A stretch of 64,000 nt of DNA, from positions 1,891-65,890 of IMG/VR virus record IMGVR_UViG_3300046810_000370, one strand, 5' to 3'. Source of the stretch: a virus. Taxonomy: Duplodnaviria; Caudoviricetes. This document shows positions 18,020 through 45,585 of the stretch, one piece after another; within the stretch, counting starts at the first letter, position 1, and each line of letters starts with the position of its first letter. The translations under genes were made by a program, and so were the position numbers. The notes under the pieces were generated by a model. That model saw only the letters and a program-made list of their open reading frames with translations. It was not told the origin of the DNA and did no database searches.

Positions 18020-18025
18020 GTGGTG

Positions 18026-24356: not shown

Positions 24357-24393
24357 CAGGAAGTCCGTTCGTCGTAAAAGGAAGAGGGGTGCG

Positions 24394-28870: not shown

Positions 28871-28885
28871 GTGGTGGTGCTCCGA

Positions 28886-29362: not shown

Positions 29363-29410
29363 AGAGCGGAGGCTCTCTTTCTTCCGGAGTAGTTGATCGA
29401 TCGAGTAGTG

Positions 29411-29439
29411 ACTCTACACTACTGATACTTGGTTGTCGA
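29411..29439 (-). promoter_or_regulatory. putative sigma70-type promoter
   Basis: TCGACA-17 nt-TAGAGT. Confidence 0.55.
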
Positions 29440-29457
29440 TTCCCGATTACTGATTCT

Positions 29458-29835: not shown

Positions 29836-29882
29836 CTCGGTCCTCCTTCGTTCGAGCCCTTGTTCGAGGGCTTGTGAGGGAG

Positions 29883-29937
29883 ACTCTACGGACCGTGTCG
29901 TTTCATTGTCAACGGATTTCGCCGATCCGTTTGACAA
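29883..29937 (-). promoter_or_regulatory. sigma70-type promoter with inverted repeat over -35
   Basis: TTGACA-18 nt-TAGAGT; TTGTCAACGGAT...ATCCGTTTGACAA dyad at 29906-29937. Confidence 0.7.
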
Positions 29938-30139
29938 CCTCACCAGCGGTCGAGGACGGCACCGCGCAGAGCCAGTCGGACGGGAGTCAAGTCCCAGTCC
30001 TCCCGCTCATCCGGAGGGTTGAGGACGTCCTCCAGCCCCTCGCGGAGCAGGACGTCGAGTGGTTCTTCTCGCATACTTCGATACTGACATGCGATTACTG
30101 GTTTAGAACCACTCGACGTCCGGCGTGCGATCCTGGAAG

Positions 30140-31783
30140 TTACGCCGCTTCCAGGCACTGCGTGAGCGTCATCAGGTCGTTCTCGATGCGCCCCTTGTCG
30201 TCAGCACCACGGCCGTCGGTGATGGCCGAGCCCACCCGCCTCTTGTGCGCGAGCATGGCGTACTTCCTGGGCTCGGTGGTGCCCTGCGTGATCGCGTTCA
30301 GCACATAGATGTTCTTGAACAGGCTGCTCGCGCGGTCGTGCCTCTTGTTGATCTGGTCCTGCTTGCCGCTGCTCCACGCGAGGTCGTAGTTGATCAAGTA
30401 GTTGGCCATCCACAGGTCGGTGCCGAAGGCGCCAGCGTGGCTGGACAGGAACACCCGGCAGCCCTCCTCCGTCTCGAACCGGCTCGCCGCGTACGCCTTG
30501 GCGCCGGCACTCATCCGGCCCGTGTACGTGACGGCCACACCCTCCGGCAGACGGTCGGCGATCAGGTCGAGCATGTCCGGGTTCACCGAGAAGACGATCA
30601 CCTTGTTCTTCGGTGTCGCCAGGATGCGTTCGACCGACTCCACCACGGCGTCCAACTTCGGGGTCGCGATGACGTCATCGAGCACGCCGTCCTGCCACAC
30701 CTCGTACGCGTACTTCGAGCCGGGCCAGGTCTTCTTCTCGGCCCCGCCCTGCCGCGCGGTCTCGCTCTCCTCGTACCGCTGCCCGGACATGACGATCAGG
30801 TCCGGGTGGTTCAGCAGCATGTCGAGCGCCTGCATGCGGCTCATGATCTTTCCCTGCTGGCTGTTCTCGTTCGGGGTGTCCCCTCCGTGGTAGTGGGCGA
30901 ACAGGTCGAAGTCGGCGTTGTTGGGCCCGAGCGCGTGCAGTTCGGCCAGCAGGTCGGAGGAGATCCGCTTGTAGGCCTTCTTCGTCTTCGGGTCCAGCAC
31001 CACCGGGATGACGTCCTCCTGGACCTTCGGCAGGAACGGCTTGACGTCGTCGTCCAGGCGCGTCTTGCGCACCATGGCGTCGGCGAGTTTGGCGTGCAGG
31101 ACAGGCAGGTTCTTGTAGTGCTGCACGCCGCCGAACTTGTTGCGGACGATGTAGGACTTGTCGTAGAGGTCGAACCGTCCGAGGACCTGGTCGTCGACCC
31201 ACTGCATGATGCTGAACAGTTCCTCGGGCCGGCCGTTCTCCACCGGGGTGCCGGTGAGGGCGTAGCGGTAAGGCGCGGTGAGCCGCTTGATCTTCCGGGT
31301 GCGCTGGGCCTTGAACGTCTTGATCGCGGTCGCCTCGTCCAGGACGATGCACTCCGGCTTGATCCGGCGTACGTAGTTCCAGTCGTTGACGACGTTCTCG
31401 TAGCCCATGATCACGAAGTCCGGGCGGTACGTCTTCACCTTGACGTACTGGCCGGCCCGCTTCTTGGTGTCGCCGTCGATGAGGATGCAGTACTCCTCCG
31501 TCGGCACGGTGATCTCCTGCACCTGCCCGTCCTCGCGGACCTTGATGACCCGGGTGGGGACGTCGGTGAGTTTGGCGATCTGCTTGGCCCACTGGTACTT
31601 GAGCGAGGCCGGCACCACGATGACGGTGGTCTCGACCTCGCCCTCGGCCAGCAGCTCCTCGATGGCGGCCAGGGCGATGGGCGTCTTGCCCAGGCCCATC
31701 TCGTAGGCGATAAGGAGGGACCCGCGCTCGACGGCGCGGGCCACGGCATCCTCCTGGTACGGGTGCAGGTCGATGGTCAGCAC
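30140..31783 (-). CDS. SNF2-family helicase
   Basis: EMGLGKT, VLDEAT, LTGTPVEN, GAFGTDL, Q...RHDR. Confidence 0.9.
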   Translation of the reverse strand: MLTIDLHPYQEDAVARAVERGSLLIAYEMGLGKTPIALAAIEELLAEGEVETTVIVVPASLKYQWAKQIAKLTDVPTRVIKVREDGQVQEITVPTEEYCILIDGDTKKRAGQYVKVKTYRPDFVIMGYENVVNDWNYVRRIKPECIVLDEATAIKTFKAQRTRKIKRLTAPYRYALTGTPVENGRPEELFSIMQWVDDQVLGRFDLYDKSYIVRNKFGGVQHYKNLPVLHAKLADAMVRKTRLDDDVKPFLPKVQEDVIPVVLDPKTKKAYKRISSDLLAELHALGPNNADFDLFAHYHGGDTPNENSQQGKIMSRMQALDMLLNHPDLIVMSGQRYEESETARQGGAEKKTWPGSKYAYEVWQDGVLDDVIATPKLDAVVESVERILATPKNKVIVFSVNPDMLDLIADRLPEGVAVTYTGRMSAGAKAYAASRFETEEGCRVFLSSHAGAFGTDLWMANYLINYDLAWSSGKQDQINKRHDRASSLFKNIYVLNAITQGTTEPRKYAMLAHKRRVGSAITDGRGADDKGRIENDLMTLTQCLEAA

Positions 31784-32073
31784 TGGTTGTACTGCCGGTT
31801 GAACTGACGCTGCGAGCGCGGGCGCTTGGGGAACGGATCCTGGTAGGGGTAGGTCCCGTCCTGGATGTGGTCCGGGTTGGCACACATGTGCCGGCGGCAG
31901 GCACGGTGCTTGGTGCGCCGGTCGCCTCCGGTCAGGTACGACAGCAGGCTCTGGCCCTGGTAGTAGGCCCGGGTGGCGTTGCACTGGAAGATCAGGCAGT
32001 CCGTGTCCGGGTCGGGCTCCACGCGGTCCCAGAAGCCCTGCCCGAGGTGCTCGTATCCGTCAGGCGCCTGCAT
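31777..32073 (-). CDS. HNH-like small protein
   Basis: FWDRV...DCLIF...HRAC...CANPDHI. Confidence 0.55.
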   Translation of the reverse strand: MQAPDGYEHLGQGFWDRVEPDPDTDCLIFQCNATRAYYQGQSLLSYLTGGDRRTKHRACRRHMCANPDHIQDGTYPYQDPFPKRPRSQRQFNRQYNQC

Positions 32074-32260
32074 GTTCGGCCTCCGGCTGGGAGGTCATGT
32101 GGAAGCCCTTGCACGTCGGGCACGGGTAGACGCGGCACGGGACCTTCTCGCGGTCGGCGTCGTGCTTGCGCTGGATGCGCTGCATGTCGAGGACGGCAGC
32201 GATCTCGTCTCGGAATCGGCGCTTGCCGCAGGTATGAAGTCGTCGCTTGTTGTAGGGCAT
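32060..32260 (-). CDS. small zinc-binding protein
   Basis: CGKRRF...RVYPCPTCKGFHMT. Confidence 0.7.
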   Translation of the reverse strand: MPYNKRRLHTCGKRRFRDEIAAVLDMQRIQRKHDADREKVPCRVYPCPTCKGFHMTSQPEAEHAGA

Positions 32261-33219
32261 CAGAACCTCGCTATGACGGATGAGTAGGCGTTGCGGACGG
32301 CGTTCTTGAGGGCGTCGGCCCCCATCTCGCCGGGGTCCTTGTAGGGCGCGGTGCCGTAGTCCAGGAACTTCAGAGCCAGGCCTCGGCCGGTCCACTCCTG
32401 GCGCAGGCGCTTGCAGGTCTCGGCGCCCGCGTTGTCGTTGTCGAGCGCGACGATGAGGGTGTCGAAGTGGTCGCGGACCAGGGACATCTGGACGTCGGAG
32501 ACTCCGGCGCCGAACGAGGCGAGGCCGGCGGGGAACCCGGCGGCGCGCAGGCGGGCCACGTCCAGAGGGGACTCGACCAGGATGGCCGTGTCGCCCTCGT
32601 AGGTATGAAGCCCGAAGAGCGTCTTCGACTTGGCCATGCCCGGCGGCCGGTTGCGGAAGTAGCGGGCGTTCTTCTCCTGCCAGCCCCACAGCATCCCGGT
32701 GTCGGGGTCGCGGACGGGGATGATCCACATCTCCCGCTCGGCGTCCCACAGGATTCCGCAGGCCTCCGCGTCCTCCGGCATGAAGAAGCGCTTGGAGCAC
32801 TCCTCCAGCGGCGGGGTGACGTACAGGGCCAGCGACGCCTCGTTGATCTGCTTGGTCGTGTCGACCGTCTTGGGGTCAGCCTTCTTCGCCAGGAACTTCT
32901 TGACCCGCTCGATCCCGCCGCGCTGGCGGACCCAGGCGACCGCGTCGCCGTACGGGAGGTCGAGCATGTCCTTCACGAGGACGACGAACGGGCCCTGGTA
33001 CCGGCAGGAGAAGCAGTTGAAATATCCGGCGTCGTAGTTTATGGAAAAGGATGGGTGCTTGTCTTTCTTTCCGGTCCGCGCCTCGTGCATCGGGCACGGC
33101 ATGTGAATCTCGTCGCCGCTGACCTTGTAGTCCAGGCCAATCTCGTCCAGGCAGGCCGTCACGTTGCCGGGAATCGGCGTTCCGACGGCGTCCCAGCCTT
33201 TCGCTCTCGCGGTCCTCAT
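32260..33219 (-). CDS. DNA primase (CHC2 zinc finger + TOPRIM)
   Basis: CPMH...FNCFSC; LVESPLD; LDNDNAG. Confidence 0.9.
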   Translation of the reverse strand: MRTARAKGWDAVGTPIPGNVTACLDEIGLDYKVSGDEIHMPCPMHEARTGKKDKHPSFSINYDAGYFNCFSCRYQGPFVVLVKDMLDLPYGDAVAWVRQRGGIERVKKFLAKKADPKTVDTTKQINEASLALYVTPPLEECSKRFFMPEDAEACGILWDAEREMWIIPVRDPDTGMLWGWQEKNARYFRNRPPGMAKSKTLFGLHTYEGDTAILVESPLDVARLRAAGFPAGLASFGAGVSDVQMSLVRDHFDTLIVALDNDNAGAETCKRLRQEWTGRGLALKFLDYGTAPYKDPGEMGADALKNAVRNAYSSVIARF

Positions 33220-33461
33220 CGCTCCCTCTCCTCCAGGTATTTCAAGTAGTCGGCCATTTCGTATGCGTCACGGCGCATGTACCAGGTGCCGTATGTGATG
33301 TAGCGGACCGGCCCGAGTCCCCGGAGCCGGTACATTTCGCTGGCGTAGATCAGATTCCGGTCACGGGGATTGCGCTCGTTCTCGTAGCACCAGTGGATGA
33401 ACTCGCGGTAGTTCCCTGCGAGGACCACCAGCCGACGATCAGAAGGCACCGACGTATCCAT
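33216..33461 (-). CDS. hypothetical protein
   Basis: 81 aa ORF between helicase and primase. Confidence 0.6.
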   Translation of the reverse strand: MDTSVPSDRRLVVLAGNYREFIHWCYENERNPRDRNLIYASEMYRLRGLGPVRYITYGTWYMRRDAYEMADYLKYLEERER

Positions 33462-34704
33462 CGGTGTTCGCCTCGTCCATGGCGAAGGGGTCCTCGTTCA
33501 GTTCCTCGAACTTGCCGGTCTCCCAGTCCCACTGGCAGTACGTCTCCAGGGGCGGGCAGTTACGGGCCAGGACGACCTTGATCTTGTTGATGTTCGCGTC
33601 GTCCGTGGATTCGACACCGAGGATGACGTCGGAGTCCTGGGCGAAGGAGGACGAATATCCGATCGAGTCGGAAGTGATGCCCTTCTTCTTGTTCATCTTC
33701 CATTCCAGGACCTGCGTGGAAATGACGATCGGTATCTGAAGGTTCTTCGCCATGCGCTTGAACCCTCGGGTGAGATTGGTGAGCGCCTGACTGGATCCCT
33801 GAGCCTCGCCGAGTTCGTCCTGCATCATGTAGATGCCGTCCACGAATACGATCGTCGGCCGAATGGCGTCGATCTTCGACTGCACGCCGGTGAGCGTCGT
33901 CGCATTCATGGAGTCCGAGGAGAGGAAGAACGAGGGCATTGCCTCAAGTTCCCGGAGGGCCCTTTCGAGTTTGTCCCACTCGACCTTCTTCAGGGTTCCG
34001 TTCCTCAGCCGGGCGTGGGAAATCCCCGCGCGGATGGCATCGAAACGTTCCTCCTGCTCCTCATTCGACATTTCGAAGCCGATGAAAAGCGGGCGTTCGC
34101 CGTACAGGTGCGCAGCCATGGCGGCCAACAACAGCAGCGTGGACTTGCCGGCCTTCGGCGGGCCGACGAAGGTGACCAACTGCTCCTTCTGGAGGCCCTG
34201 GGTGGCCCTGTCGATCGTGTTGAAGCCGGTGGGTACACCGCGCAGCCCGTCGGGCAGGTCCTTGAGCGTGAGGTACCGGGCGAGGCGTTCCTGGCCGGTC
34301 TCCGTCAGGTCGGTGTCGCGGGCGTTGGGTACGGCCGAGGCGATGGAGGCCAGGGTGCGCGCGAGCGCCTCCATGGCGGCGTTGGCGTTGCCCTCTTCGT
34401 GTGCGTCGACCGAGTCGGCCAGGCCCTGCTCCAGCAGGGCCAAAGTATGAAGTTCCCGCAGCCGGTCGGTCAGCACGTTCATGCTGTCCTCGACGCGGAC
34501 GAACTTGTAGGTGGGGAAGTCGGTCTTGATGGTGGCGAGGGACGGCACCTCGCCGTAGTTGCCCTTGTGCCGCAAGATCGCCTTGAAGACGGCCCGGTTG
34601 TCCGGGTCGCCGAAGAAGTCGGGGGTGATGCCCGCGTCCGCGACAGGTGCCAGGTCCTTGTCCTGGATGACGCGGGAGACGAGCAACCGCTCGAAGTCCG
34701 CCAC
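33439..34704 (-). CDS. dnaB: DnaB-like replicative helicase
   Basis: GVPTGF, GPPKAGKS, FEMS, FVDGI, QDSD. Confidence 0.92.
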   Translation of the reverse strand: MADFERLLVSRVIQDKDLAPVADAGITPDFFGDPDNRAVFKAILRHKGNYGEVPSLATIKTDFPTYKFVRVEDSMNVLTDRLRELHTLALLEQGLADSVDAHEEGNANAAMEALARTLASIASAVPNARDTDLTETGQERLARYLTLKDLPDGLRGVPTGFNTIDRATQGLQKEQLVTFVGPPKAGKSTLLLLAAMAAHLYGERPLFIGFEMSNEEQEERFDAIRAGISHARLRNGTLKKVEWDKLERALRELEAMPSFFLSSDSMNATTLTGVQSKIDAIRPTIVFVDGIYMMQDELGEAQGSSQALTNLTRGFKRMAKNLQIPIVISTQVLEWKMNKKKGITSDSIGYSSSFAQDSDVILGVESTDDANINKIKVVLARNCPPLETYCQWDWETGKFEELNEDPFAMDEANTDGYVGAF

Positions 34705-35147
34705 TACATAGCCCCTATAAGAGTCGTGGGTACGGCCGGGAGCATGCGTCCCTTGCTGCCGTAGATCAGGTGGTTGGTGTTGTCGAAGACGGCCGCGACG
34801 TCAGGCATGTGGGCCAGGCGGCGGGCCAGCTTCCTCGGGTCGTCGGACCAGACGCGGCCGATGGGCAGGCCCTCGATGTCCAGGCGCCACTCGACGGCTT
34901 CGGCGAACTCGTCGCCCAGGTAGGTGATGACGTCCACCGAGTACCGGAAGCGCCAGACCGTGTCCCAGATGACGTGGGCCAGCGGCTCGTTGATCTCGTA
35001 GGCCTTCACCGCGCGCTTCCACTGGTGCGCCCGGCGGGCCACTGATTCGCCGGCGCGGGCGCGGGTGGTGGGCAGGTTGCCCAGCAGGCCTTCGAAGACC
35101 AGGACCATGCGGGGGCTGACCTCGTTGGAGATGTCGCCGCCCTGCAT
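34704..35147 (-). CDS. hypothetical protein (HAD-like)
   Basis: MQGGDISNE...VLVFEGLL; overlaps neighbours by 1 nt. Confidence 0.6.
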   Translation of the reverse strand: MQGGDISNEVSPRMVLVFEGLLGNLPTTRARAGESVARRAHQWKRAVKAYEINEPLAHVIWDTVWRFRYSVDVITYLGDEFAEAVEWRLDIEGLPIGRVWSDDPRKLARRLAHMPDVAAVFDNTNHLIYGSKGRMLPAVPTTLIGAM

Positions 35148-35389
35148 CAGGTTCGCTCCGCCTCGGCGCGGAGCTGGATATGAAGCCAGTTGCCGCGACG
35201 TTCGCGGTGGGTGTCCCAAGTCCGGACGGTGAACCCGAGGACCCGCGCGGTGTGCATGGCGCGCCAGATCAGGCGCTGGGTTTCGGAGTGGATGGCGCCC
35301 CGGCCGGCCACGGCCTGGTGGAGTTCCCCTTTGTGGAGAATCACCAAAACCTCGTCCTTGAAGGGGAGGACCAGTTGCTCATGCGGCAC
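35147..35389 (-). CDS. hypothetical protein
   Basis: 80 aa ORF filling gap, carries in-frame motif. Confidence 0.55.
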   Translation of the reverse strand: MPHEQLVLPFKDEVLVILHKGELHQAVAGRGAIHSETQRLIWRAMHTARVLGFTVRTWDTHRERRGNWLHIQLRAEAERT

Positions 35390-36038
35390 GGCGGTCTGCT
35401 CCTACCAGGGTGAGGTGGGTGAAGGCCTCCTGGATGAAGGAGCCCATCGTGGGGTTGTAGATGGCGCCCCACTCCCGGGGCGGGACGTTCGAGGTGACCA
35501 GGGTGGGCAAAGCCTCGCGGTGCCGCTGGCGCAGGAGGGTGTCGAGCAGGCCCTCGGCGTAGCCGGTCTTGGTGCGGTGCTCCTTGCCGACGTCGTCCAG
35601 GAGGAGGACGGGGGCCTTCTCGGCCGCCACGATCTTGTCCTGGATCTCCCACCAGCGGGCGACGGCTTCGGGCTCGTGCCGGTCCTGGAGGCCCATCTTC
35701 TCGATGGAGTCCTTCACGAAGTCGGCGTAGGCCAGCCAGTGGACCGGCAGGCGCTTCTCGAAGTAGACGTCCAGGAGCGTGGCGGTGGCCAGTGAGGTCT
35801 TGCCGGTGCCGGGCGGGCCGACGAACAGCAGCCCCTTGCCGATCTGGGACCAGTCCTTGGGGTACTGGTCCAGCGGGCGCTTGTCGGTGACGTAGTGGTC
35901 GCGCAGTTCGTCGAGCCAGGTCTGGCAGGCGGCGCGCTGGGCAGCGTCCGCCACGGTATGAAGTCGCAGGTGGCGGTAGTGCGCCGGGACGCCGTACTCC
36001 TTCAGGCGCAGGGCGTGGACCCGGGGGTCGGTCGCCAT
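35379..36038 (-). CDS. DnaC/IstB-like AAA+ helicase loader
   Basis: GPPGTGKT, LLLDDVGKE, TLVTSN. Confidence 0.85.
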   Translation of the reverse strand: MATDPRVHALRLKEYGVPAHYRHLRLHTVADAAQRAACQTWLDELRDHYVTDKRPLDQYPKDWSQIGKGLLFVGPPGTGKTSLATATLLDVYFEKRLPVHWLAYADFVKDSIEKMGLQDRHEPEAVARWWEIQDKIVAAEKAPVLLLDDVGKEHRTKTGYAEGLLDTLLRQRHREALPTLVTSNVPPREWGAIYNPTMGSFIQEAFTHLTLVGADRRAA

Positions 36039-36121
36039 GGTGGGTACCTCCTGTGGTGGTGGATCAACGTTCAGGAGGCTACCACAGTTATTGCTTTTGA
36101 ATCGATAGTTGGGAATGAGTA

Positions 36122-36151
36122 AGGGGCGGACCGCCGAAGCAGCCCGCCCCT
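36122..36151. terminator. stem-loop
   Basis: AGGGGCGG...CCGCCCCT. Confidence 0.55.
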
Positions 36152-36160
36152 GTGGGTCGG

Positions 36161-37141
36161 TCAGGACCAGTAGTCCTCATTGAACCGGTTGTCCTCCATC
36201 ACGCTGGCGGCCTTGCCCAGTCGCTGGGCCAGCAGGCCACGGGCTGCGAGGAAGTCCTTCCAGGCGACCACGTTGTCCGAGCGCTGCCAGGAGACCGACC
36301 AGTACGTGATGATCATCTGGCGGATCTCGTCGCGCCCGGTGCCCTGTGCCATCCACCGGCCGAAGTTGCCGGTGAGCGCAGAGAGGTTGGCGGCTCCCGG
36401 CACCGGATGGCCGACGTCCTTGGCCCGCTGGTCGAAGAACAAGGCCAGCGTCTCTGAAGGCCGCACGGAGCGTGCCTTACGACTTCGCTGGACCGGAGGG
36501 GCCAGGTCATCATCCGAGGCCGGCACGCGGGCAGCCAGGGACTCTCCCGGATCTTCCGCGTCGAGAGCCTGGGACACCACGTACGCCGGGTCGAGTTCCC
36601 GTTCCGCCTGTTCCCTCTCCAGGGCTTCCTGCTTCCGGGACTTCTTACGGCCGCCACGCTTGGGGGCTGCAACCGCTCCCCAGCCCTTGGAACCCGGCTT
36701 GGGAGGGTCTTCCCCCAGGGCGTCGCCCTGGAGATACGAAGTATCTCTATTACTTCTAGGTTGGTTATTGGGGTTGGGTGAAAACTTCGACACAGGGGGT
36801 GCAGAATCTGCACTGCTGAGGGGTGCAGATTCTGCACTCGCCGGGGCGGAAGGCCACTCCACGACCGGCTTGATGCGCCGGACCACGGACTTGTAGCGCA
36901 GGGCCTCCACGGGGGCCTCGTCGTCCGGTACGTGCTCGACGATCCCCTGCTCCTCCAGGGCCGCCAGCGACGAGTACGCCTGGCGCTTGGAGACACGGGC
37001 CTTGCCCGCGATGGTGTCGGCCGACTCCCAGCACATGCGGTGGGTGTCGTTGGCCGCGTCCGCCAGCGCGAGCAGTACGAGCCTTGTAGCCAGTCGGGTA
37101 TCCGAGTGCGTGAACACCTCGGACATGATCAGGATGCTCAC
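36161..37141 (-). CDS. replication initiator-like protein with N-terminal winged HTH
   Basis: RLVLLALADAAND...CWES..TIA.KARVSKR..Y..L..LEE.G; upstream of loader and helicase. Confidence 0.7.
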   Translation of the reverse strand: MSILIMSEVFTHSDTRLATRLVLLALADAANDTHRMCWESADTIAGKARVSKRQAYSSLAALEEQGIVEHVPDDEAPVEALRYKSVVRRIKPVVEWPSAPASAESAPLSSADSAPPVSKFSPNPNNQPRSNRDTSYLQGDALGEDPPKPGSKGWGAVAAPKRGGRKKSRKQEALEREQAERELDPAYVVSQALDAEDPGESLAARVPASDDDLAPPVQRSRKARSVRPSETLALFFDQRAKDVGHPVPGAANLSALTGNFGRWMAQGTGRDEIRQMIITYWSVSWQRSDNVVAWKDFLAARGLLAQRLGKAASVMEDNRFNEDYWS

Positions 37142-37185
37142 TCGGCGACTCCGAGGAAGCGATAAGTATGAAGCGATATCGCCAT
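37138..37185 (-). CDS. 15-codon leader ORF MAISLHTYRFLGVAE coupled to initiator gene
   Basis: AGGAG RBS, ATG, in-frame CTT-CAT-ACT, TGA overlapping GTG start. Confidence 0.6.
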   Translation of the reverse strand: MAISLHTYRFLGVAE

Positions 37186-37236
37186 GGTAGGTTGACTCCT
37201 ATCTCGGGGTTTGTGGTGGGCCTCGGGGTGTGGTGG

Positions 37237-37295
37237 GCAAAGGCCCCCGGCAGTGGCTTGAGGTCTTGAACCTCGCCAGCGCCGGGGGCCTTTGC
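37237..37295. terminator. long stem-loop
   Basis: GCAAAGGCCCCCGGC...GCCGGGGGCCTTTGC with further internal pairing. Confidence 0.7.
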
Positions 37296-37300
37296 GTTAC

Positions 37301-38512
37301 TCACTCCGAGTCGAGTTCGAGGCCCTTCTCCTCGATCTCCGCACGGGTCAGGTGAACCACCTTCGAACCGGCCGGGATCCGGCCACGGCCGCGACGGGCG
37401 TAGTTGCCCTCGTCGTCGACCAGGAACGCGAACGTCTTGGACTCGTCACGCGGACGGCCACGACGCCGGCGCGTGGAGGACTGCTCCTCCTGCTCACCCT
37501 CGGACTGCTCGGCGGCCTCCGGGGCTTCCTGCTTCTGTTCGCCGGTCTGCGGCAGGGTATGAAGCGCCTTGGCCAGCAGTTCCGTCAGCGGTCGCTCGCG
37601 TACGTCGGCCTGGTTGATGACCGCGTTGCGCTCGTCCTCCAGACGGAGCACCTTGTAGGCACCCTCCAAAGCGGCGCGTATCAGGAGCAGGTCGATCTCG
37701 GCGTCCGGGACCGGCTTGGCGGTCTCCTTCTGCTGCGCCTTGTGCTGCGCGCGGGCGATCGTCTCCTGCAAGGACTCCTGCTCGCTGATGTCCTCCTCGA
37801 CCGGGGACTCCTCCGGCTCCGGCTCGGCCTTGCGGCGGGAGCGGCGGGGCTCCGGCTTCGGCTCCTCCTCCTTCGGCTCGTCCTCGGTCAGCGGCTCCTC
37901 CTGCGGCTCGGCAGCCTCGGGCTCGGCACGACGACCGCGACGGCGGCCACGCTTCGGCGCCTCCGCCTCCGCCTCGGGCTCCGGCTCGGGCTCCGGCTCG
38001 GGGGCGGGGGCGGCTTCCGGCTGCTCGGCGAAGGAGATGTCGTCGAGGCCGGCCGTCAGGTCCTTGGCCTTGATGCCGGCCTGCTCGGCGGCGTCCAGGA
38101 GGAGTTCGGCCTCCTCGCTGCCCTCGTCGCCCCACAGGAGGATGACGTGGGCGTCGCCCTGGCTGTCGGCGTTCTTCAGGAGGTCGACGATCCCGGCGGT
38201 GACGTTGGCCGTACGGACGACCTCTTCGGCGTCCGTGAGGATCTTGTCGACCGCGCGGCTCTTCTCGCCGTCGGTGACCGCGATGAACGGGATGTCGGCG
38301 TACTCGGACCACTCCAGGACGGCCTCCAGGCCGTCGGAGAGGTGCTTCTTGGTGATGGGGAGGATGAGCGTGATCTCGCGCTCGGACGGCTCGGGGTAGC
38401 CGTCCGCGTCGTCGTCGCCGAGACCCACGAAGTCGTTCAGCAGAGCCTTGACGTTCTCGACGTCCGTATCGGCGGAGCCGGCGAACGCGAGGGCGATGGG
38501 CTGAGTGCTCAA
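37301..38512 (-). CDS. acidic/Pro-Glu-rich hypothetical protein with AT-hook-like RRGR motifs
   Basis: Long ORF; start uncertain; EPEPEP and RRRGRP repeats. Confidence 0.6.
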   Translation of the reverse strand: MSTQPIALAFAGSADTDVENVKALLNDFVGLGDDDADGYPEPSEREITLILPITKKHLSDGLEAVLEWSEYADIPFIAVTDGEKSRAVDKILTDAEEVVRTANVTAGIVDLLKNADSQGDAHVILLWGDEGSEEAELLLDAAEQAGIKAKDLTAGLDDISFAEQPEAAPAPEPEPEPEPEAEAEAPKRGRRRGRRAEPEAAEPQEEPLTEDEPKEEEPKPEPRRSRRKAEPEPEESPVEEDISEQESLQETIARAQHKAQQKETAKPVPDAEIDLLLIRAALEGAYKVLRLEDERNAVINQADVRERPLTELLAKALHTLPQTGEQKQEAPEAAEQSEGEQEEQSSTRRRRGRPRDESKTFAFLVDDEGNYARRGRGRIPAGSKVVHLTRAEIEEKGLELDSE

Positions 38513-38632
38513 GTCTGCTCCAGGTGTGTGGTGTGTGCCGCCCTGATCGGCGACGAGTGAGACGTTACCGGTTATCGCTTCTAAATGCAAGAAATCCCCG
38601 CTTGTATAGCGGGGATCTCAATTCGCTTGACA

Positions 38633-38917
38633 TCAGGGCAGGTCGGGGACCCTCCGCCCGGTGGACGGATGTCTGCGGGGGATCCGCAGCGGCGGGGCCT
38701 CCACTCCGCCCCGGACCGGGATGTGCAGCAGGGCCACCACACCGGCCGCAGCCGCAGCGAGCAGCCACGGGCCGGGCACGAACTGCGCGCCGTAGGCCAG
38801 GGCGACGACCGCGACCGGCTGGAGCCAGGCGGGGAGGGAGAAGGGGAGCGCTACGGCCAGCCACTCCCACGCGGTGAAGGTGGCGAAGCAGATCAGCAGG
38901 AACCGGAACCAGTCCAT
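38633..38917 (-). CDS. small membrane protein
   Basis: MDWFRFLL..., multiple TM helices. Confidence 0.65.
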   Translation of the reverse strand: MDWFRFLLICFATFTAWEWLAVALPFSLPAWLQPVAVVALAYGAQFVPGPWLLAAAAAGVVALLHIPVRGGVEAPPLRIPRRHPSTGRRVPDLP

Positions 38918-38918
38918 G

Positions 38919-39458
38919 TCAGATCGACCTCGTACCGAGCCCGTTGACCTTCGGCAGCACGATCGTGGAGGCCGCAGGCGGGCTGACGCGGTTCTCGACG
39001 ACACGCTTCTCCATGACCCGCCGCACGGCGTCCTCCACACTCCGGGAGATCTGCTCGACGACCTCCTCGCCCAGCAGCGTGCCGCCCGCCGGGGTCTCGG
39101 TGACCTGCGTCTCCTCTACGTACCGGGCGATGGTGCCCGGCGAGATATGAAGCCGGCTCTCCGTCTCGGTTACGAGGGTGTTCTGGAGCGTGGCGAACCA
39201 CGCGTACTTCTTGAGCAGCGAGTGGTAGAAGGTCGTGCCGGTCACCCATGCCAGGAAGGCGGCCACGACAGCCGGCGCCCAGTAGAAGTGCTGCGGCTCG
39301 GCCTGGTGGACCGCCCAGAAGCCTGTGGCGACCGAGAGGGCGGCGTGCGCGATCCCCTTGACCGTGGGGTTGGTGGACGGCCGGGTGAACAGGGCGACGA
39401 TGGCGGGCAGGACCAGGCCGACGACGAGGGATGCCGCGCCGGCGTAGTTGCTGAACAT
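38919..39458 (-). CDS. holin-like membrane protein
   Basis: Three N-terminal TM helices; follows tail genes. Confidence 0.55.
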   Translation of the reverse strand: MFSNYAGAASLVVGLVLPAIVALFTRPSTNPTVKGIAHAALSVATGFWAVHQAEPQHFYWAPAVVAAFLAWVTGTTFYHSLLKKYAWFATLQNTLVTETESRLHISPGTIARYVEETQVTETPAGGTLLGEEVVEQISRSVEDAVRRVMEKRVVENRVSPPAASTIVLPKVNGLGTRSI

Positions 39459-39480
39459 GCTTGTCCTTACGGGTTCGTGG

Positions 39481-40698
39481 TTACTGGGTCGGGAGTACTG
39501 CATATTGGGGCACCGCTGAAGTGATTCCCAAAGGCGTATTCTCGTCGAGTAGCGTGCGGATGAGGTAACTCCGCTCGACCCGGTTCTCGTAGAAGTACGA
39601 GCGCGTGAGGTTCGCGGTCCCGGCGGTTTCCCAGAGGTAATCCGCGCCCATCGAACCGTCGAAGTAATCCCGTACCGAGGTGCCTTCCTCGACCAGGATC
39701 CCGTCGGCCCAGAAGATGCTGGGCTGGCCCGCAGTCATCGTCGACCGGGAAACGTTGAACCCCATCCACACCGAGGAGACCTTGGCGTCGAACGTCACCC
39801 AGACAGTGCGCCACTGAGGGTTCTTCGGATCCGGCTGGGAGGTACGGAAGGTGGTGCGATCGACCATCGTGGAGTAGCTGGCGCCGGTCCACGCGTATAC
39901 GTCACCGCAAGACTGAGCGATGGCCAGCCGTGCGCTCATGGTGTACCGGCGCCCCGGGATGAGTCCCGTGATCTGGAAGTTGAACCCTCCGTCGGTGGAC
40001 CCGGCGGCCGGTGAGGTGACCTTGCAGGAGCCGGTCCCGGTCCAGCAGAAGGGGTCGGCGGCCACGGTCGCGCTGTTGATGGCAACGGCTCCCGTGATAC
40101 CGCTCTCGAAGTTCGGGTTCGTCGCGTAGTTGAGCCGGGTCGGCTTGATGAGGACCTGGATCTCCCGCGCGTTCTGGTACAGGCTCGGGCCGGCCGCTAC
40201 CAGTGGCAGCGGTTCGAACTGCACCGCATCCAAAATCTGGTGTTTGGTCGCCGACATGCTCGCGAACTTGAACCCGACGGCCGCGTACGCAGCGCGCTTC
40301 CAGGCGTAGCCACCCCCGGACACCGGATAGTCCACCGGCCCGGTGAACGCGGCGTACGGACGGCTGTAGGAGCCGGCGACAGCGGACTTGAGCGCGCCGG
40401 ATGTGGCGCCGATCCACGCCATGGCCGGGTCGGTGCCGCCGACCGGGTAGTGGGAGAAGTCCTTGAACGCGGAGGCCGGCGCCCGGACTCCGGCTGACAG
40501 CAGACCCTGGATGGTGAACTGGCCGGCCAGTGGAGACAGCGGCTTGGGGCGCGGGATCTTCGCGAGGATGACGCCGTCGAAGGAGACCGTGCCGCCGAGC
40601 TGCGGCGTGTAGGTCCGGTACTTGCCCATGACGATGGTGCCGGTGACCGCAACGGACGGGGTGTACTCGTAGTCGTTGCGGATGATGATGTCCGTCAT
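39481..40698 (-). CDS. tail protein with carbohydrate-binding-like domain
   Basis: NYATNPNFE, YFDGS; position in baseplate cluster. Confidence 0.65.
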   Translation of the reverse strand: MTDIIIRNDYEYTPSVAVTGTIVMGKYRTYTPQLGGTVSFDGVILAKIPRPKPLSPLAGQFTIQGLLSAGVRAPASAFKDFSHYPVGGTDPAMAWIGATSGALKSAVAGSYSRPYAAFTGPVDYPVSGGGYAWKRAAYAAVGFKFASMSATKHQILDAVQFEPLPLVAAGPSLYQNAREIQVLIKPTRLNYATNPNFESGITGAVAINSATVAADPFCWTGTGSCKVTSPAAGSTDGGFNFQITGLIPGRRYTMSARLAIAQSCGDVYAWTGASYSTMVDRTTFRTSQPDPKNPQWRTVWVTFDAKVSSVWMGFNVSRSTMTAGQPSIFWADGILVEEGTSVRDYFDGSMGADYLWETAGTANLTRSYFYENRVERSYLIRTLLDENTPLGITSAVPQYAVLPTQ

Positions 40699-42680
40699 CA
40701 GGTGACCGCCATTCCGACCTTGGTGGCTGTGCTGAACGTCGAGTTAGTAAGGGTGAGCACCTGAGTTCCGTTCCTCTGCACGGTGATGTTGCTTCCGACG
40801 AACGTGACCGTGAGCCGGTCCCCGTCCTGGCAGGTCTGGGAGTAGGCGTAGGTGGCGACCCAGGCTCCGGCCTCGATGCGGTGCAGACCGCTCCGCCCCG
40901 CGCGCCAGTAGTTGGAGGCGTCCTGGAGCCGGAAGACGGCGCCCTGCTTGAGGGTGTTGCCGGGGTTGGTCAGGAACGTCACGGCGACTGTGCCGTCCGC
41001 GTGGCCGGGCATGGTGGCGACGGATGCCGTGGCTCCTACGGGGTAGGCCGCCCCGCCCGCGTAGCCGCTGGAGGTCCACTGGCCGGTCGTTTCCGTCCAG
41101 GAGGCAGCGCCGATGTCCGAGGTGCGGGTCGTCCAGTCGCTCCAGCCCTGCGTGAAGGAGTCCAGCACGTTGTACGCCGGAACCTGGTCGCTGTAGAGCG
41201 TGGTCACCAGGGCGCCGTGCTCGTCGTAGTACTCGACGAACGGGGACACCACGACCTGCTCGCCGGAGTAGGCCTGCGCGTAGCCGGACAGGCACATCTG
41301 CACGCGATCGTCGTACCCGAGCGGAGTCCACTGGGTGTTCGCGGTCGGTGTGGTCGGCGGTGCGACGTTGAGGCTGGCGGTGAGCGCCTGGTAGACGCGG
41401 CCGTGGTAGATGATGACGTCGCCCGGCTGGTAGTAGGCGCCGTCGTCCCAGTTCTGCCAGGTGTACGGGACCGGGATGCCATAGAGCACAGGCTGCTGCG
41501 GGTCCATGGTCGCCTGGCCGGCGACACGACCGACGGAGCGCACACCCATGGTGGCCACGGACCCACCGGAGTTGGTGTTGCGCACCCACAGCGCGTTGCC
41601 GGCCTTGTCGTTGGGGTCGGTCGGGTTCTGCACGCCGATGCCCACCAGGACGCCGCCCGTGCCCGGGGAGACGCCGGCGGTGAAGGAGATCTCCTCCCAC
41701 CCGGCGACGCGGCCGTTGGCGTCGACCAGCGTGGAGTCCGTGCCGTACTGCACGGCCGTCCAGTACGCGTTGGACGCCGTGGTGCCCGTCGGGGCCTGCG
41801 AGGATCCGTAGGCGCCGCTGCTGCCTGCCTGGTAGAGGTAAGCACCGAACTCGATCTTGTCCCCGGCCGCGTAGTTCACGCCCGCGTCCCACTGCGGGTA
41901 GCTGGGGTGGTCGAAGTCGGCCTGGTCGTCGGAGAGCATGAGGTTGCGGCCGATGGCGAGGTCGGCGTCGTACCCGGTCGTCTCGGAGATGACGGAGCGG
42001 ATCTGCTCCAGGGTGCCCTTCTGCCGCCCGAGCGTCGCGGCGTCGCGCACGCGCTGCCGGAAGAGGTAGGCGGGCGTGGACGCCTCGAAGTCGATACCGA
42101 ACTGCGTGGCCAACTGGGCGATGTTGTCGTAGCGGGTACGCATCGCGTCGTTGGTGTAGCGGTTGGAGTCGTAGTACGACTTGACCATGTCGAAGCCGAA
42201 CCCGAAGACCGACAGGAACGGCGCCAGGTACGGGTTGATGGTGTTGGAGTCGTCGGTGGCGTTGTTGCCCGGGGCGACGTCGACCTTGTAGTGCTCGGGG
42301 ACGAGGGAGTACAGCAGGTCGGTGTACCCGCTGTCCTTGGGCATGAGGCAGGCGACGGTGCCGGCCCGAGACCACTGGCCGGAGGCGGAGATGAAGATCG
42401 TGTAGTACAGCCAGTGCCCGCCGGCGACACCTGTGTCCGCGTAGTTGGTCGCGGTGTGCGTCTGGTCGAGGAGGATCTCCCCGTCGGTCTCGTTGACGGC
42501 CCAGCCGTACCGGTTGCGCAGCAGGCGCAGGGTGTCCCACGAGCCGGCGGGGGCGGTCCAGTCCAGGAGCACGGTCGAGTAGTCCACGGGCGTGGCTGTG
42601 AACGGGCTGACGTCGAAGTCCGGGTGGACATCGGTCCCGTACTTCGTCAGCCCGTAGAGGGAAGCGCCGTAAGTGCCCAT
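40698..42680 (-). CDS. baseplate wedge/tail protein with CBM-like repeats
   Basis: RQKGTLEQI wedge motif; W...Y..GD repeats. Confidence 0.7.
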   Translation of the reverse strand: MGTYGASLYGLTKYGTDVHPDFDVSPFTATPVDYSTVLLDWTAPAGSWDTLRLLRNRYGWAVNETDGEILLDQTHTATNYADTGVAGGHWLYYTIFISASGQWSRAGTVACLMPKDSGYTDLLYSLVPEHYKVDVAPGNNATDDSNTINPYLAPFLSVFGFGFDMVKSYYDSNRYTNDAMRTRYDNIAQLATQFGIDFEASTPAYLFRQRVRDAATLGRQKGTLEQIRSVISETTGYDADLAIGRNLMLSDDQADFDHPSYPQWDAGVNYAAGDKIEFGAYLYQAGSSGAYGSSQAPTGTTASNAYWTAVQYGTDSTLVDANGRVAGWEEISFTAGVSPGTGGVLVGIGVQNPTDPNDKAGNALWVRNTNSGGSVATMGVRSVGRVAGQATMDPQQPVLYGIPVPYTWQNWDDGAYYQPGDVIIYHGRVYQALTASLNVAPPTTPTANTQWTPLGYDDRVQMCLSGYAQAYSGEQVVVSPFVEYYDEHGALVTTLYSDQVPAYNVLDSFTQGWSDWTTRTSDIGAASWTETTGQWTSSGYAGGAAYPVGATASVATMPGHADGTVAVTFLTNPGNTLKQGAVFRLQDASNYWRAGRSGLHRIEAGAWVATYAYSQTCQDGDRLTVTFVGSNITVQRNGTQVLTLTNSTFSTATKVGMAVT

Positions 42681-42687
42681 GGGTGGC

Positions 42688-43335
42688 TCACATCTCCCGG
42701 AGCATGGACACGGAGAAGTTGATCTCGTCCAGGGTGTAGGTCTTGCCGCCGTTGGCGTTGCGCTCGATCATCTCGATCTTCTTGCCGGCCGCGACCGGGC
42801 CCTGCCAGAAGGCCGTGGTGTGGCTGTAGCCGTTGAAGTTGTGCGTCACCGTGTGACACACGACGCGGTTGCCGCCCACGGAGAGGCCGAGCCAGCGCTC
42901 CGGGTCTTCCAGGAGGATCGACCCTCGGCAGTACGCGGATGCGATCCACCAGCCGGAGCGGTTGGTCGTGACTGCCGACCCGTCGAAGATGCCTTCGGGG
43001 TCGTTGGCGGCCGACGGCCTGGGGAACGGAATCGGGATCCGCTCGGCGGCGCCGGTCACCGGGTGCGTCGGAGGCTTGAGCGTGTGCGAGGTCTTGGTCA
43101 TGTAGCAGACCGGAATGCCCTTGCCGCGCTGGATGGCGTCCAGGCGCGCGGCCACCGACGCCCACGTGTTCGTCTTCATCTTCAGCGCGGTGCCCTGGTG
43201 AGGGTTGAGTCCCAGGGTCTGCTGGATGGCCAGGACCTCGTCCTGGAGGTTGTTCACGTGACTGGCGTCGATGTCCTCGACGAGGTTCTTGTGGATGGTG
43301 AAACTCTTGTACTGCTTCGGGTAGACAGCGGCCAT
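42688..43335 (-). CDS. tail/baseplate-associated protein
   Basis: ASHVNNLQDEVLAIQQTLG; ATG 43335. Confidence 0.6.
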   Translation of the reverse strand: MAAVYPKQYKSFTIHKNLVEDIDASHVNNLQDEVLAIQQTLGLNPHQGTALKMKTNTWASVAARLDAIQRGKGIPVCYMTKTSHTLKPPTHPVTGAAERIPIPFPRPSAANDPEGIFDGSAVTTNRSGWWIASAYCRGSILLEDPERWLGLSVGGNRVVCHTVTHNFNGYSHTTAFWQGPVAAGKKIEMIERNANGGKTYTLDEINFSVSMLREM

Positions 43336-45219: not shown

Positions 45220-45269
45220 GCTTGCATTCTCCCAGGAATGCCTACCCAGATTGCAGTTCCAGTTTTAGG

Positions 45270-45569: not shown

Positions 45570-45585
45570 TAAAGGGTCGTCCTCA

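Follow-up and report, generated by a model that had tools for sequence, protein, structure and literature searches.

A conserved leader mini-ORF ahead of a likely phage replication initiator gene carries one copy of a genome-wide, codon-phased word-plus-hairpin unit

Results

Leader mini-ORF and initiator gene

We analysed a 64,000-nt stretch of the genome of a tailed soil phage (Caudoviricetes; positions 1,891–65,890 of IMG/VR record IMGVR_UViG_3300046810_000370), hereafter the window. The locus comprises a gene for a 326-aa protein, likely the replication initiator, whose N-terminus is an HTH_36 domain (PF13730, E 3e-8), and a mini-ORF directly ahead of it (Table 1). The genes directly downstream encode a DnaC/IstB-like ATPase and DnaB. 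The mini-ORF reads ATG GCG ATA TCG CTT CAT ACT TAT CGC TTC CTC GGA GTC GCC GAG TGA, and its TGA (37140–37138) shares bases with the initiator GTG (37141–37139) in the overlap GTGA. This arrangement of an AGGAG, a 15-codon ORF with in-frame CTT CAT ACT and a TGA/GTG overlap had been described in the original prediction and was confirmed on the minus strand at 37200–37138; the motif positions also bore out that no copy of the motif lies within the initiator ORF itself. An ATG five codons inside the initiator ORF (37126–37124) could act as an independent start, from which the initiator could be translated independently.

The same prediction had called ATA, CTT, CAT, ACT and TAT rare, and the genome codon counts agree (ATA 38/833 Ile, CTT 81/1458 Leu, CAT 62/424 His, ACT 81/1438 Thr and TAT 28/648 Tyr).

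The surroundings of the leader are rich in repeats. Each of two 19-nt direct repeats inside the initiator gene includes a palindrome, making the pair candidate origin iterons. The tandem direct repeat ahead of the mini-ORF is unique in the window and nearly invariant in 16 of 16 leader versions from both variant groups defined below. The long inverted repeat further upstream has 36-nt arms that are 78% complementary and is terminator-like, without a T-tract. No sigma-70 promoter or canonical terminator was called in a scan of 36900–37500, and no antisense promoter was detected in the window.

Table 1 Features of the leader locus and related elements, in window coordinates.
Feature	Position	Strand	Remarks
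Mini-ORF MAISLHTYRFLGVAE plus stop, 15 codons	37138..37185	-	Carries one motif-plus-hairpin unit
AGGAG, Shine–Dalgarno-like	37196..37200	-	10-nt spacer to mini-ORF ATG (37185-37183)
Motif copy CTT CAT ACT (Leu-His-Thr)	37165..37173	-	Mini-ORF phase 0
Predicted unit hairpin, 9 pairs, loop AGUCG	37136..37160	-	MFE -12.9 kcal/mol
326-aa HTH_36 protein, likely replication initiator	36161..37141	-	GTG start
Two 19-nt direct repeats, GGGGTGCAGA(A/T)TCTGCACT	36796..36838		24 nt apart; inside initiator gene
Tandem direct repeat, CCCACCACA(C/AA)CCCCGAG x2	37203..37237	-	Between upstream hairpin and mini-ORF
Long GC-rich inverted repeat	37222..37310		Directly after stop of upstream 429-aa gene
DnaC/IstB-like ATPase	35379..36038		Directly downstream of initiator
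DnaB	33439..34704		Directly downstream of initiator
Second carrier mini-ORF, MNRLHTWAAE	52054..52086	-	ATG overlaps stop of upstream 1020-aa gene (TAATG); TAA overlaps tail-tube ATG (TAATG)
Third carrier mini-ORF, MRLHTYGGPC	21868..21900	-	TGA overlaps TTG start of RecA-like gene (TTGA)
512-aa protein	3704..5242		Match to PHROG 887
321-aa protein	5270..6235		Weak candidate from comparison with unit-poor relative
Other 30 motif-plus-hairpin units (first base of 9-mer)	3435..63571	-	63571, 60260, 56137, 52250, 49347, 39152, 37564, 35963, 35185, 34452, 32610, 32239, 29688, 28768, 28026, 27244, 24681, 23783, 22940, 20707, 17470, 15503, 12003, 10730, 10095, 9130, 7550, 5770, 4963, 3443

Conservation of the leader

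Related phages carry either CTT-CAT-AY (C-variant, as here) or CTT-AAT-AY (A-variant), almost never both and mostly at homologous positions. The mini-ORF ATG is present in all 16 distinct leader versions, and in 15 of them the start codon, the register between ORF and motif, and the stop/start overlap (GTGA or ATGA) are all kept; the sixteenth (L018) has the same start and motif opening a 133-codon frame. The peptide itself varies (MAISLHTYRFLGVAE, MSSRLNINGGFGAAE, MLSRLNINGEAAR, MALPLHTYRIRL, MASLHTYCSLGAAE), so the proposed check, that relatives should conserve the frame and not the peptide, came out as predicted. The conserved leaders precede three different initiator N-terminal types. At the homologous position of the mini-ORF motif, A-variant relatives have CTTAATATC; the motif in the leader switches variant together with all other copies of the genome. 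The AGGAG is replaced in relatives by GAGAGAG or GGGAAG, where the Shine–Dalgarno sequence is weaker.

In this phage the predicted leader stem pairs the GG of the initiator's GGAG and its GUG start. In the consensus structure of seven leader versions, two of the nine pairs showed compensatory changes and one cell was broken; A-variant leaders are predicted to fold in another register, with GGAG in the loop. The whole-leader fold was not more stable than shuffles (z -0.7). Since the predicted hairpin pairs part of GGAG together with GUG, it is plausible that the initiator depends on translation of the mini-ORF.

A genome-wide word in one codon phase

CTTCATAY occurs 33 times on the minus strand of the 65.9-kb record and never on the plus strand, and all 33 copies lie on the coding strand in phase 0. 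A search for the 9-mer with at most one mismatch gave 29 matches against 3.1 expected, again all on the minus strand. Genes contain 28 of the 33 copies, the rest lying in carrier or small ORFs; phase 0 was found for 23 of 23 copies inside called genes and was assigned to the others by local GC3 or by their mini- or small ORFs. Non-coding gaps total roughly 7 kb. Neither CTTGATAY nor CTTTATAY formed an enriched set in this genome or in 51 loci around distant TGT-like homologues.

When this genome and 64 related loci were combined, none of 283 distinct copies lacked an in-frame start in phase 0, and 213 of the same copies lacked one when read in phase +1. A complete 107-kb relative has 46 copies on its main strand and a single opposite-strand copy; this copy is in phase 0 of an ORF that runs in the opposite direction, lies five codons past its ATG and is followed by a hairpin of -13.9 kcal/mol. 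Another opposite-strand gene holds chance copies, which are in phase +1, lack a hairpin and do not differ between the two phage types.

Constraint on the third codon of the word acts at the nucleotide level, as A-Y-N (Thr, Ile or Met), and position -1 is a purine, so the word cannot be read simply as three codons. The C-variant permits phase +2 (nCT-TCA-TAY), yet eight [A/P/S/T]-Ser-Tyr pre-sites are essentially unused, and 27 of the 29 Leu(CTN)-His-[Thr/Ile/Met] tripeptides of the proteome are units. Variant-specific sites arise at pre-existing Leu/Gln-His-x or Leu-Asn-x; codon phase matters, since it is Leu-His or Leu-Asn dipeptides already present that become new sites, and other-phase sites are ignored. 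In the A-variant phase 0 is forced, the other phases giving a TAA stop or TTA-ATA, and inheritance from an A-variant ancestor could explain part of the phase lock.

An origin of the units by insertion was rejected, because the DnaB and DnaC-like units align gap-free to unit-free homologues; in DnaB, point substitutions turned an existing Q-H-T into the unit and left the length unchanged.

By our own reading of the positions, units are about threefold enriched near gene boundaries, and they are denser in the replication region. Roughly half lie well inside genes or a few codons past the start, several of them 2–10 codons past a start codon having its own AGGAG, and in three carrier-ORF and four gene-end cases a gene start lies 11–40 nt downstream of the unit. 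Promoter sets of the T7/T3 type likewise consist of many copies of a type-uniform motif in one orientation, and the word could be a promoter element of a phage-specific sigma factor or RNA polymerase, with the hairpin as the stabilising 5' end of the transcript. The orientation, copy number and uniform motif resemble such sets, and the gene starts 11–40 nt downstream also speak for this reading. We nevertheless give this reading only a slight chance: transcripts from units 2–10 codons past a start with AGGAG would lose that start, a promoter has no phase requirement, no single -10 register accommodates both variants, and no RNA polymerase or sigma factor was found among the proteins scanned.

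Carrier mini-ORFs at other positions

The leader mini-ORF is one of a set. We found 22 distinct carrier mini-ORF peptides at about five genomic positions, of which 21 end at a stop codon sharing bases with the start of a following ORF that is 60 codons or longer (GTGA, ATGA, TTGA, TAATG or TGATG). Two further carriers of this genome are given in Table 1; the third is conserved in relatives as MRLHTYGGPR, ...MRLHTCGGTL and ...MTLHTCGGCP.

That the leader mini-ORF might be a functionless open frame arising by chance in an untranslated leader would suit its shortness and the failure of relatives to keep the Shine–Dalgarno sequence as AGGAG. This is extremely improbable given the conservation in 15 of 16 leaders, the same architecture at about five positions and the absence of any copy untranslatable in phase 0 among 283.

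The hairpin beside the word

A GC-rich hairpin lies within about 2 nt after all 33 CTTCATAY copies. The mean MFE of units was -13.7 versus -8.6 for controls (p 1.5e-9), solely at the offset directly after the motif, and the enrichment was replicated in 413 contexts of both variants (p about 1e-50), the first pair falling 0–2 nt past the 9-mer in 326 of them. Compensatory changes were seen in 22 of 353 pairs, and cells were paired in 84.6% versus 43.7% with shifted partners; changes at paired positions broke the pair in 383 cells and kept it in 196, and the stem register may shift between relatives. The hairpins fold about equally on both strands, with a sense-strand shift versus controls that is significant but only about 1 kcal/mol.

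The stems are all different in sequence, the shared part being the 8–9-nt word. The units resemble Rickettsia RPE-type repeats in that a hairpin-forming sequence is translated in frame inside ordinary genes. RPE-type repeats, however, are inserted mobile copies of one sequence, whereas the units share the word only, with differing stems and no insertion.

CUU is also found at programmed +1 frameshift sites (prfB CUU-UGA-C; Ty1 CUU-AGG-C). The units are like these in having a P-site CUU, a slow A-site codon and a nearby stimulatory element, and can be read as CUU + N + AUA. The geometry is present (CUU-NAU, then 3 + (0–2) nt, then the stem) and is insufficient alone for a frameshift site. The coding signal, however, is in frame 0 on both sides of every unit. 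Stop distances show no design (+1 median 55 versus 36 codons, p 0.014; -1 no different), and AUA, the +1-frame codon of the units, is very rare in the genome. Frameshifting at site 24681, where a long overlap offers two open frames, was rejected, GC3 staying in frame 0 to the gene's own stop.

Endonuclease sites and 5' stabilisers classically combine an AU-rich single-stranded word with a stable GC hairpin next to it. The unit could likewise be an RNA processing or stability element, in which an endoribonuclease would cut the AU-rich word and the stem-loop would protect the new 5' end or the upstream RNA; ribosomes would then not be the reader, and mini-ORFs would merely melt hairpins that block the next start codon. 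Besides the layout, the enrichment near gene boundaries, the higher density in the replication region and the pairing of the initiator's GGAG and GUG by the focal stem are in keeping with this. T4 RegB provides a precedent, being a phage nuclease with a long word, GG*AGRAYARAA, in many early phage mRNAs, mostly near translation starts (PMC3014915). Its structure relates it to RelE and YoeB, ribosome-dependent toxins that read A-site codons; its words are intergenic Shine–Dalgarno sequences, secondary structure protects them from cleavage, and the sections of that paper cited here describe no phase lock (PMC3014915). Both are recurring words specified by the phage, whereas the units come with accompanying structure and a phase lock. 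No RegB- or RelE-like protein was found among the proteins scanned. We regard RNA processing as an unlikely explanation: cleavage at about half of the units would destroy their own gene's message, and a ribosome-independent nuclease gives no cause for the phase lock of the C-variant. Were the nuclease to act within the A site of the ribosome, this explanation would become part of the main one, reading by ribosomes.

Two variants in a temperate phage group

The loci divide into 56 with only the C-variant, 76 with only the A-variant and three mixed by a single site. Where A-variant loci cover sites of this genome, 14 of 18 have the A-variant at the homologous position. A PolA tree of 33 rows, built from this genome and 32 of the 42 PolA loci after removal of partial and some duplicate ones, requires three changes of variant label, its starred branches being compatible with a single origin; row L056, evidently mistranslated, sits on a long branch. 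GenBank phage records yielded no close relatives by megablast, nor by tblastn with the initiator, and matches there were limited to DnaB at 41% identity in BRock-group phages. Parts of the window are matched by 24 public runs, all as metagenome contigs; one is an RNA run, with a 0.05 share of words.

No reader of the word emerged from allele or type association, the identity ranges of C- and A-variant homologues overlapping for nearly every gene, nor from about 65 proteins scanned in the record, which covers about 62% of the full genome. Comparison with a unit-poor relative (about 37 kb) gave weak candidates only, such as the 321-aa protein of Table 1.

One candidate is suggested by annotation. 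The 512-aa protein matches PHROG 887, 'queuine tRNA-ribosyltransferase' (E 9e-73), and curated records name its homologues TGT or dpdA-like. Its top Foldseek hits are tRNA-guanine transglycosylase and Cap10 (E 6e-5; TM 0.43–0.49 to target), with TM as low as 0.33 (range 0.33–0.49) and other TIM barrels scoring too, and searches of Pfam, NCBIfam and PDB sequences gave no match. CAU and AAU are read by G34-U35 tRNAs, and the central NAU codon might sense the state of the G34 (queuosine-family) His or Asn tRNA, set by a phage TGT/DpdA-like enzyme, with ribosomes pausing until the tRNA pool changes. Such a sensor would account for the NAU codon in both variants and for the phase lock, and the phage encodes a candidate enzyme. 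We consider it quite improbable all the same: 31 of the 51 loci with a homologue have at most two motif copies, so that the gene does not share the distribution of the units; a TGT that acts on all four GUN tRNAs offers no means of holding a genome to a single variant; members of the phage TGT/DpdA family are generally DNA-modifying enzymes; no queC/D/E or folE was found among the proteins scanned; and the window contains no tRNA genes.

Stoperators are double-stranded DNA repressor sites of about 13 bp, mostly in short intergenic spaces, for which no adjacent hairpin or codon phase is reported. In Cluster A mycobacteriophages they number in the tens, are asymmetric and mostly lie in one orientation relative to transcription, and their motif tracks the cognate trans factor, according to the portion of the study cited here (PMC6550527). 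The units are similar in being tens of oriented asymmetric sites whose motif differs between related phages, in a group that likewise consists of temperate actinophages (tyrosine integrase and serine recombinase in the complete relative). They differ in their length of 8–9 nt, their translated phase-0 frames, the hairpin 0–2 nt downstream and the carrier ORFs between genes.

The word could therefore be the double-stranded DNA site of an immunity-type repressor that silences prophage transcription, with phase lock and mini-ORFs as by-products. The roughly 33–47 asymmetric sites per genome along the direction of transcription, uniform in type, speak for it, their uniformity and orientation matching the Cluster A properties reported in that portion of the study (PMC6550527); so do the temperate habit and the exclusion of other A-variant phases by TAA or TTA-ATA. 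We judge a repressor site unlikely, however. It leaves unexplained the adjacent variable-sequence hairpin, the avoidance by the C-variant of the permitted phase +2 despite free pre-sites, and the own start codon and stop/start overlap of every intergenic copy. Sites were put into proteins at amino-acid cost and not into the roughly 7 kb of non-coding gaps, and no repressor or other co-varying gene was singled out. Nor do the copies behave as frame-independent intergenic sites: 33/33 are in phase 0, 0/283 are untranslatable and 28/33 lie inside genes.

Discussion

In plasmid R1 (tap-repA) and in IncB/IncI plasmids (repY-repZ), a leader ORF with its own RBS has a stop that overlaps or abuts the start of the initiator gene, and a stem hides the initiator RBS, which makes translation of the initiator dependent on that of the leader. 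The leader described here is alike in being a short RBS-bearing ORF whose stop overlaps the initiator start; the predicted stem over that start may be a further parallel. The plasmid leaders are single loci under antisense-RNA control, whereas the leader word here recurs 33–47 times in genes for structure, replication and recombination. The mini-ORF makes most sense as an adaptor putting the initiator behind a genome-wide signal.

The original prediction took the mini-ORF for a dedicated regulatory uORF. Its structural part stood up well, with conserved start, frame and overlap and a motif that switches in concert with the rest of the genome. Its emphasis on rare codons did not: rarity as such is probably not the point, because the third codon is constrained just as A-Y-N and what is conserved is the whole 8–9-nt word plus hairpin.

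Our main reading, to which we assign a probability of about 0.5, is that the mini-ORF is a real, translated carrier ORF in which ribosomes read the genome-wide cis element before the initiator is translated. The analysis shows directly the anatomy, the locking of the units to one strand and one codon phase, the hairpin, the concerted switch of variant, and the carrier ORFs with their stop/start overlaps; from these we infer that the mini-ORF is translated, that coupling and pausing take place, and that a reader exists and of what kind it would be, and likewise that the mini-ORF would gate initiator expression. The signal, for which codon phase matters, is most likely read on the mRNA during translation by a type-specific factor.

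The proposed element is R-CUU-NAU-AY-N, where N of NAU is C in this phage and A in the sister group; a GC-rich stem-loop, which varies in sequence, comes 0–2 nt after it. The element would act on the mRNA and be read in codon phase. With the stem beginning about 11 nt past the first base of CUU, the hairpin would stand at the ribosome entrance when CUU occupies the P site and NAU, a wobble-read codon, the A site. Each unit may then be a programmed elongation checkpoint, a pause or arrest site, acted on by a phage-type-specific factor that must tell C from A at position 4. Since the mini-ORF stop overlaps GUG and the predicted stem pairs GGAG and GUG, initiator synthesis would depend on ribosomes passing the unit and then reinitiating.

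A further step, which we offer tentatively and hold to be clearly less probable than reading by ribosomes as such, is to see the units as 'translational stoperators': they would form a system, specific to the phage type, for silencing or timing genes through elongating ribosomes and not through RNA polymerase. A phage or prophage factor would arrest or cut translation at ribosomes that the hairpin holds while CUU fills the P site and NAU the A site; such a factor might, for instance, be a RelE/RegB-like endoribonuclease working in the A site, or an enzyme with tRNA-His or tRNA-Asn as its substrate. Carrier mini-ORFs would bring under the system those genes without a tolerant position, such as the initiator, the RecA-like gene, the tail tube and a serine recombinase operon. 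The C-to-A switch at position 4 of about 30 sites would mark the birth of a new immunity or compatibility specificity, analogous to repressor/stoperator co-evolution but written in the reading frame.

Our literature searches returned no published description of this element and no multi-copy phage word locked to codon phase. To our knowledge, reading takes place on DNA or free RNA for all multi-copy regulatory words of phages (promoters, operators, stoperators and nuclease sites), and none of these is phase-locked. Here a word plus hairpin is present 33–47 times per genome in one frame, with proteins altered to fit it and carrier genes built between genes. If the ribosome is the reading platform, this would be a new genome-wide layer controlling phage gene expression, possibly with a new immunity specificity, and a tractable case of cis/trans specificity changing at dozens of sites at once. 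If this holds for the mini-ORF, replication initiation would lie behind a translational checkpoint and not solely under transcriptional control.

Mini-ORF preceding the replication initiator gene

The original prediction described an AGGAG, a 15-codon ORF with in-frame CTT CAT ACT and a TGA/GTG overlap with the initiator gene, and reading the sequence located all of these elements. The codons are ATG GCG ATA TCG CTT CAT ACT TAT CGC TTC CTC GGA GTC GCC GAG TGA, which translate as MAISLHTYRFLGVAE*. The mini-ORF carries one unit, that is, the 9-mer with its adjoining GC-rich hairpin. In the predicted structure, the consensus stem (37136–37160, minus strand) pairs both the GG of GGAG and the GUG start, and two of its nine pairs show compensatory change among seven leader versions of the C-variant (genomes with CTTCATAY; A-variant genomes have CTTAATAY). 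The sequence GCGATA...TATCGC around the leader motif (37161–37182, minus strand) could form an alternative hairpin holding the word in its loop; locus L005 retains it via G-U pairs; the counterpart in A-variant leaders is GCCG...CGGC. A motif-in-loop hairpin is not general among units.

Four features recur in all 16 distinct leader versions: the GC hairpin upstream, the CCCACCACA...CCCCGAG tandem repeat, the ATG, and a phase-0 motif. Fifteen versions also retain an overlapping GTGA or ATGA; in the exception, the related IMG/VR locus L018, the same start and motif lead into a 133-codon frame. This conservation spans three different initiator N-terminal types, and the proposed check on relatives turned out as anticipated, with the frame of the mini-ORF conserved and its peptide varying. 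The stem is part of the unit, because in A-variant leaders its register follows the motif rather than the start codon. The tandem repeat may be a promoter or protein-binding site of the replication operon.

The initiator gene lies directly upstream of genes for a DnaC/IstB-like ATPase and the DnaB helicase. The 19-nt repeats within it resemble origin iterons placed inside the initiator's own coding sequence, an arrangement also seen in lambda O. The HTH_36 domain, the DnaC/DnaB neighbours and these iteron-like repeats make "replication initiator" a reasonable name for the protein.

Coordinates of the features discussed (window positions unless a locus is named)
Feature	Position	Strand	Basis or remark
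TGT/DpdA-like protein, 512 aa	3704-5242	minus	PHROG 887 "queuine tRNA-ribosyltransferase" match
Transglycosylase-like protein	9709-10293	minus	full-length homologues in 5 C-variant vs 0 A-variant loci
Endolysin	10386-11249	minus	full-length homologues in 6 C-variant vs 0 A-variant loci
SpoVS-like protein	14638-14940	minus	
RNA-ligase-family protein	17321-18019	minus	full-length homologues in 18 C-variant vs only 4 A-variant loci
WhiB-like transcription factor	19839-20219	minus	
Initiator ORF, 326 aa, GTG start	36161-37141	minus	N-terminal HTH_36 domain, E 3e-8
Two 19-nt direct repeats GGGGTGCAGA(A/T)TCTGCACT, 24 nt apart	36796-36838		inside initiator gene; internal palindrome in each
Mini-ORF stop TGA	37140-37138	minus	overlaps initiator GTG 37141-37139
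Mini-ORF start ATG	37185-37183	minus	sequence reading
Shine-Dalgarno-like AGGAG	37200-37196	minus	sequence reading
Tandem repeat CCCACCACA(C/AA)CCCCGAG x2	37203-37237	minus	only occurrence in window; nearly invariant in 16 leader versions, both variants
GA(C/T)(T)AGGAGT starts	63590-63610, 56150-56170, 37190-37205, 21905-21920	minus	
Units of unit-poor relative	L058 11168 and 14114		both phase 0 with hairpins

Placement and reading frame of the units

With at most one mismatch, the 9-mer occurs 29 times (3.1 expected), on the minus strand only. The full pattern CTTCATAY has 33 coding-strand copies and none on the opposite strand, with a purine at −1 in 31 (background 40%). With 83 ORFs called, all 23 copies within them were in phase 0 (CTT-CAT-AYN), as were five additional CTTCATAT copies judged by local GC3; of the remaining copies, mini-ORFs contain three and small uncalled ORFs two. 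At copy 63571 (first base of the 9-mer, minus strand) local GC3 is ambiguous, and the copy lies two codons past an ATG with its own AGGAG. Two units fall within the ribonucleotide reductase gene, so a limit of one per gene does not hold. Leu-His-Thr occurs 24 times (2.3 expected) and, in this proteome, 27 of the 29 Leu(CTN)-His-[Thr/Ile/Met] tripeptides are units, while the eight [A/P/S/T]-Ser-Tyr pre-sites are essentially unused. Phase 0 is forced in the A-variant because reading it in either other phase yields TAA or TTA-ATA; in the C-variant, phase +2 is permitted as nCT-TCA-TAY.

An in-frame start was present for all 283 distinct copies read in phase 0, and was absent for 213 of them in phase +1. 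Intergenic units have their own start codon 2–4 codons upstream. The carrier mini-ORFs occur at about five positions, ahead of the initiator, RecA-like, tail tube, 98-codon and DnaB genes, and encode 22 distinct peptides; for 21 of these the stop codon shares bases with the start codon of a following ORF that is 60 codons or longer. R1 tap-repA, prfB/Ty1 frameshifting and RPE elements are known systems for comparison. Further points of comparison are stoperators (PMC6550527) and RegB, treated together with RegA in PMC3014915. A repressor site on DNA, an RNA processing site or a promoter would each explain some features of the unit, but these readings leave the phase lock and the carrier ORFs together unexplained.

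Hairpin of the unit

The 36 nt 3' of the 9-mer had a mean folding energy of −13.7 kcal/mol, compared with −8.6 in 3000 random windows (p 1.5e-9); windows upstream or further downstream of the motif were ordinary. In relatives (413 distinct contexts), the values were −13.6 and −13.2 for the two variants against −8.5, and the first paired base lay 0–2 nt past the 9-mer in 326 contexts. Stem sequences differ in every unit. Across relatives, 84.6% of cells were paired versus 43.7% with shifted partners, compensatory double changes occurred at 22 of 353 pairs, and changed cells were pair-breaking in 383 cases versus pair-keeping in 196. The sense-strand bias of the hairpin was only mild.

Relatives and the two variants

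Many relatives are present in IMG/VR, each with one of the two words (C-variant only in 56/132, A-variant only in 76/132; three mixed by a single site), totalling 943 coding-strand copies versus nine opposite over 1.99 Mb. Relatives covered 19 sites of the record, 18 of them by A-variant loci, and at 14 of these 18 the A-variant word stands at the homologous position. At six of eight C-only sites the A-variant has ordinary codons for Leu/Gln-His-x (e.g., CTG CAC ACC or CAG CAC ACC), and many A-only sites are located at Leu-Asn-x (CTG AAC ACC and similar). Substitutions, with no insertion, gave rise to the DnaB unit; they include Gln to Leu and Asp to Ala, the second of which makes the stem longer. 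Three C-variant loci (L048, L049 and L084/L159) have exactly one A-variant unit each and are either recombinant or incompletely switched; CTTAATACC, for instance, stands in 2 of 12 C-variant loci at the position homologous to 20707 (first base of the 9-mer, minus strand). Phages with 40–67% marker-protein identity have few or no units. The nearest unit-poor relative (L058, L158; PolA 67% identical) has only two in about 37 kb and may represent the system at an early stage or in decay.

The record (65,890 bp, 65% GC) has genes for a contractile tail and its own replisome. Because a relative (G001, the record behind L025) is complete at 107 kb with direct terminal repeats, the record is a genome fragment of about 62% of full length. 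Genes of the complete relative include a tyrosine integrase and, in divergent orientation, a large serine recombinase with a small ORF (L194 1003-4500), so the group is probably temperate. The endolysin and transglycosylase-like genes have full-length homologues in the C-variant only and neighbours common to both variants; the lysis cassette therefore differs between the groups. The WhiB-like and SpoVS-like genes are typical actinophage genes related to host development. An extended ribosome-binding word, GA(C/T)(T)AGGAGT, recurs 9–10 nt upstream of the start codon at several strong gene starts and is reminiscent of start-associated sequences in Cluster K mycobacteriophages.

Orientation and proposed mechanism

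The complete 107-kb relative has 46 main-strand copies and one opposite-strand copy. The latter is in a 52-codon ORF of opposite orientation that heads a serine-recombinase operon; it lies five codons past the ORF's ATG, in phase 0 (GC3 0.97) and with a hairpin of −13.9. In another opposite-strand gene, chance copies occur in phase +1, lack a hairpin and are identical in both phage types. Unit orientation follows the gene, and genome-polarity functions (packaging, Chi-like sites, lagging-strand priming) are therefore excluded. Frameshifting at units is unlikely given the frame 0 coding signal and the stop distances.

A literature search at the level of search results found no published description of the element. 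Comparing C- and A-variant homologues, or comparing against the unit-poor relative (about 37 kb), singled out no reader, the proposed type-specific factor recognising the unit. The TGT/DpdA-like protein has best fold matches to tRNA-guanine transglycosylase and Cap10, and carries an invariant C-x2-C-x5-C-x8-C cluster towards its C terminus. The record showed no queC/D/E or folE genes. The protein would be an attractive link to the NAU codon, but its distribution does not follow that of the units, and homologues occur widely in actinophages, those of the BRock group among them.

The geometry of the unit suggests that the stem would stand at the ribosome entrance when the P site holds CUU and the A site NAU. 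On this reading, the unit would act as a checkpoint on elongation that a type-specific factor recognises, with the mini-ORF as an adaptor placing the initiator behind it.
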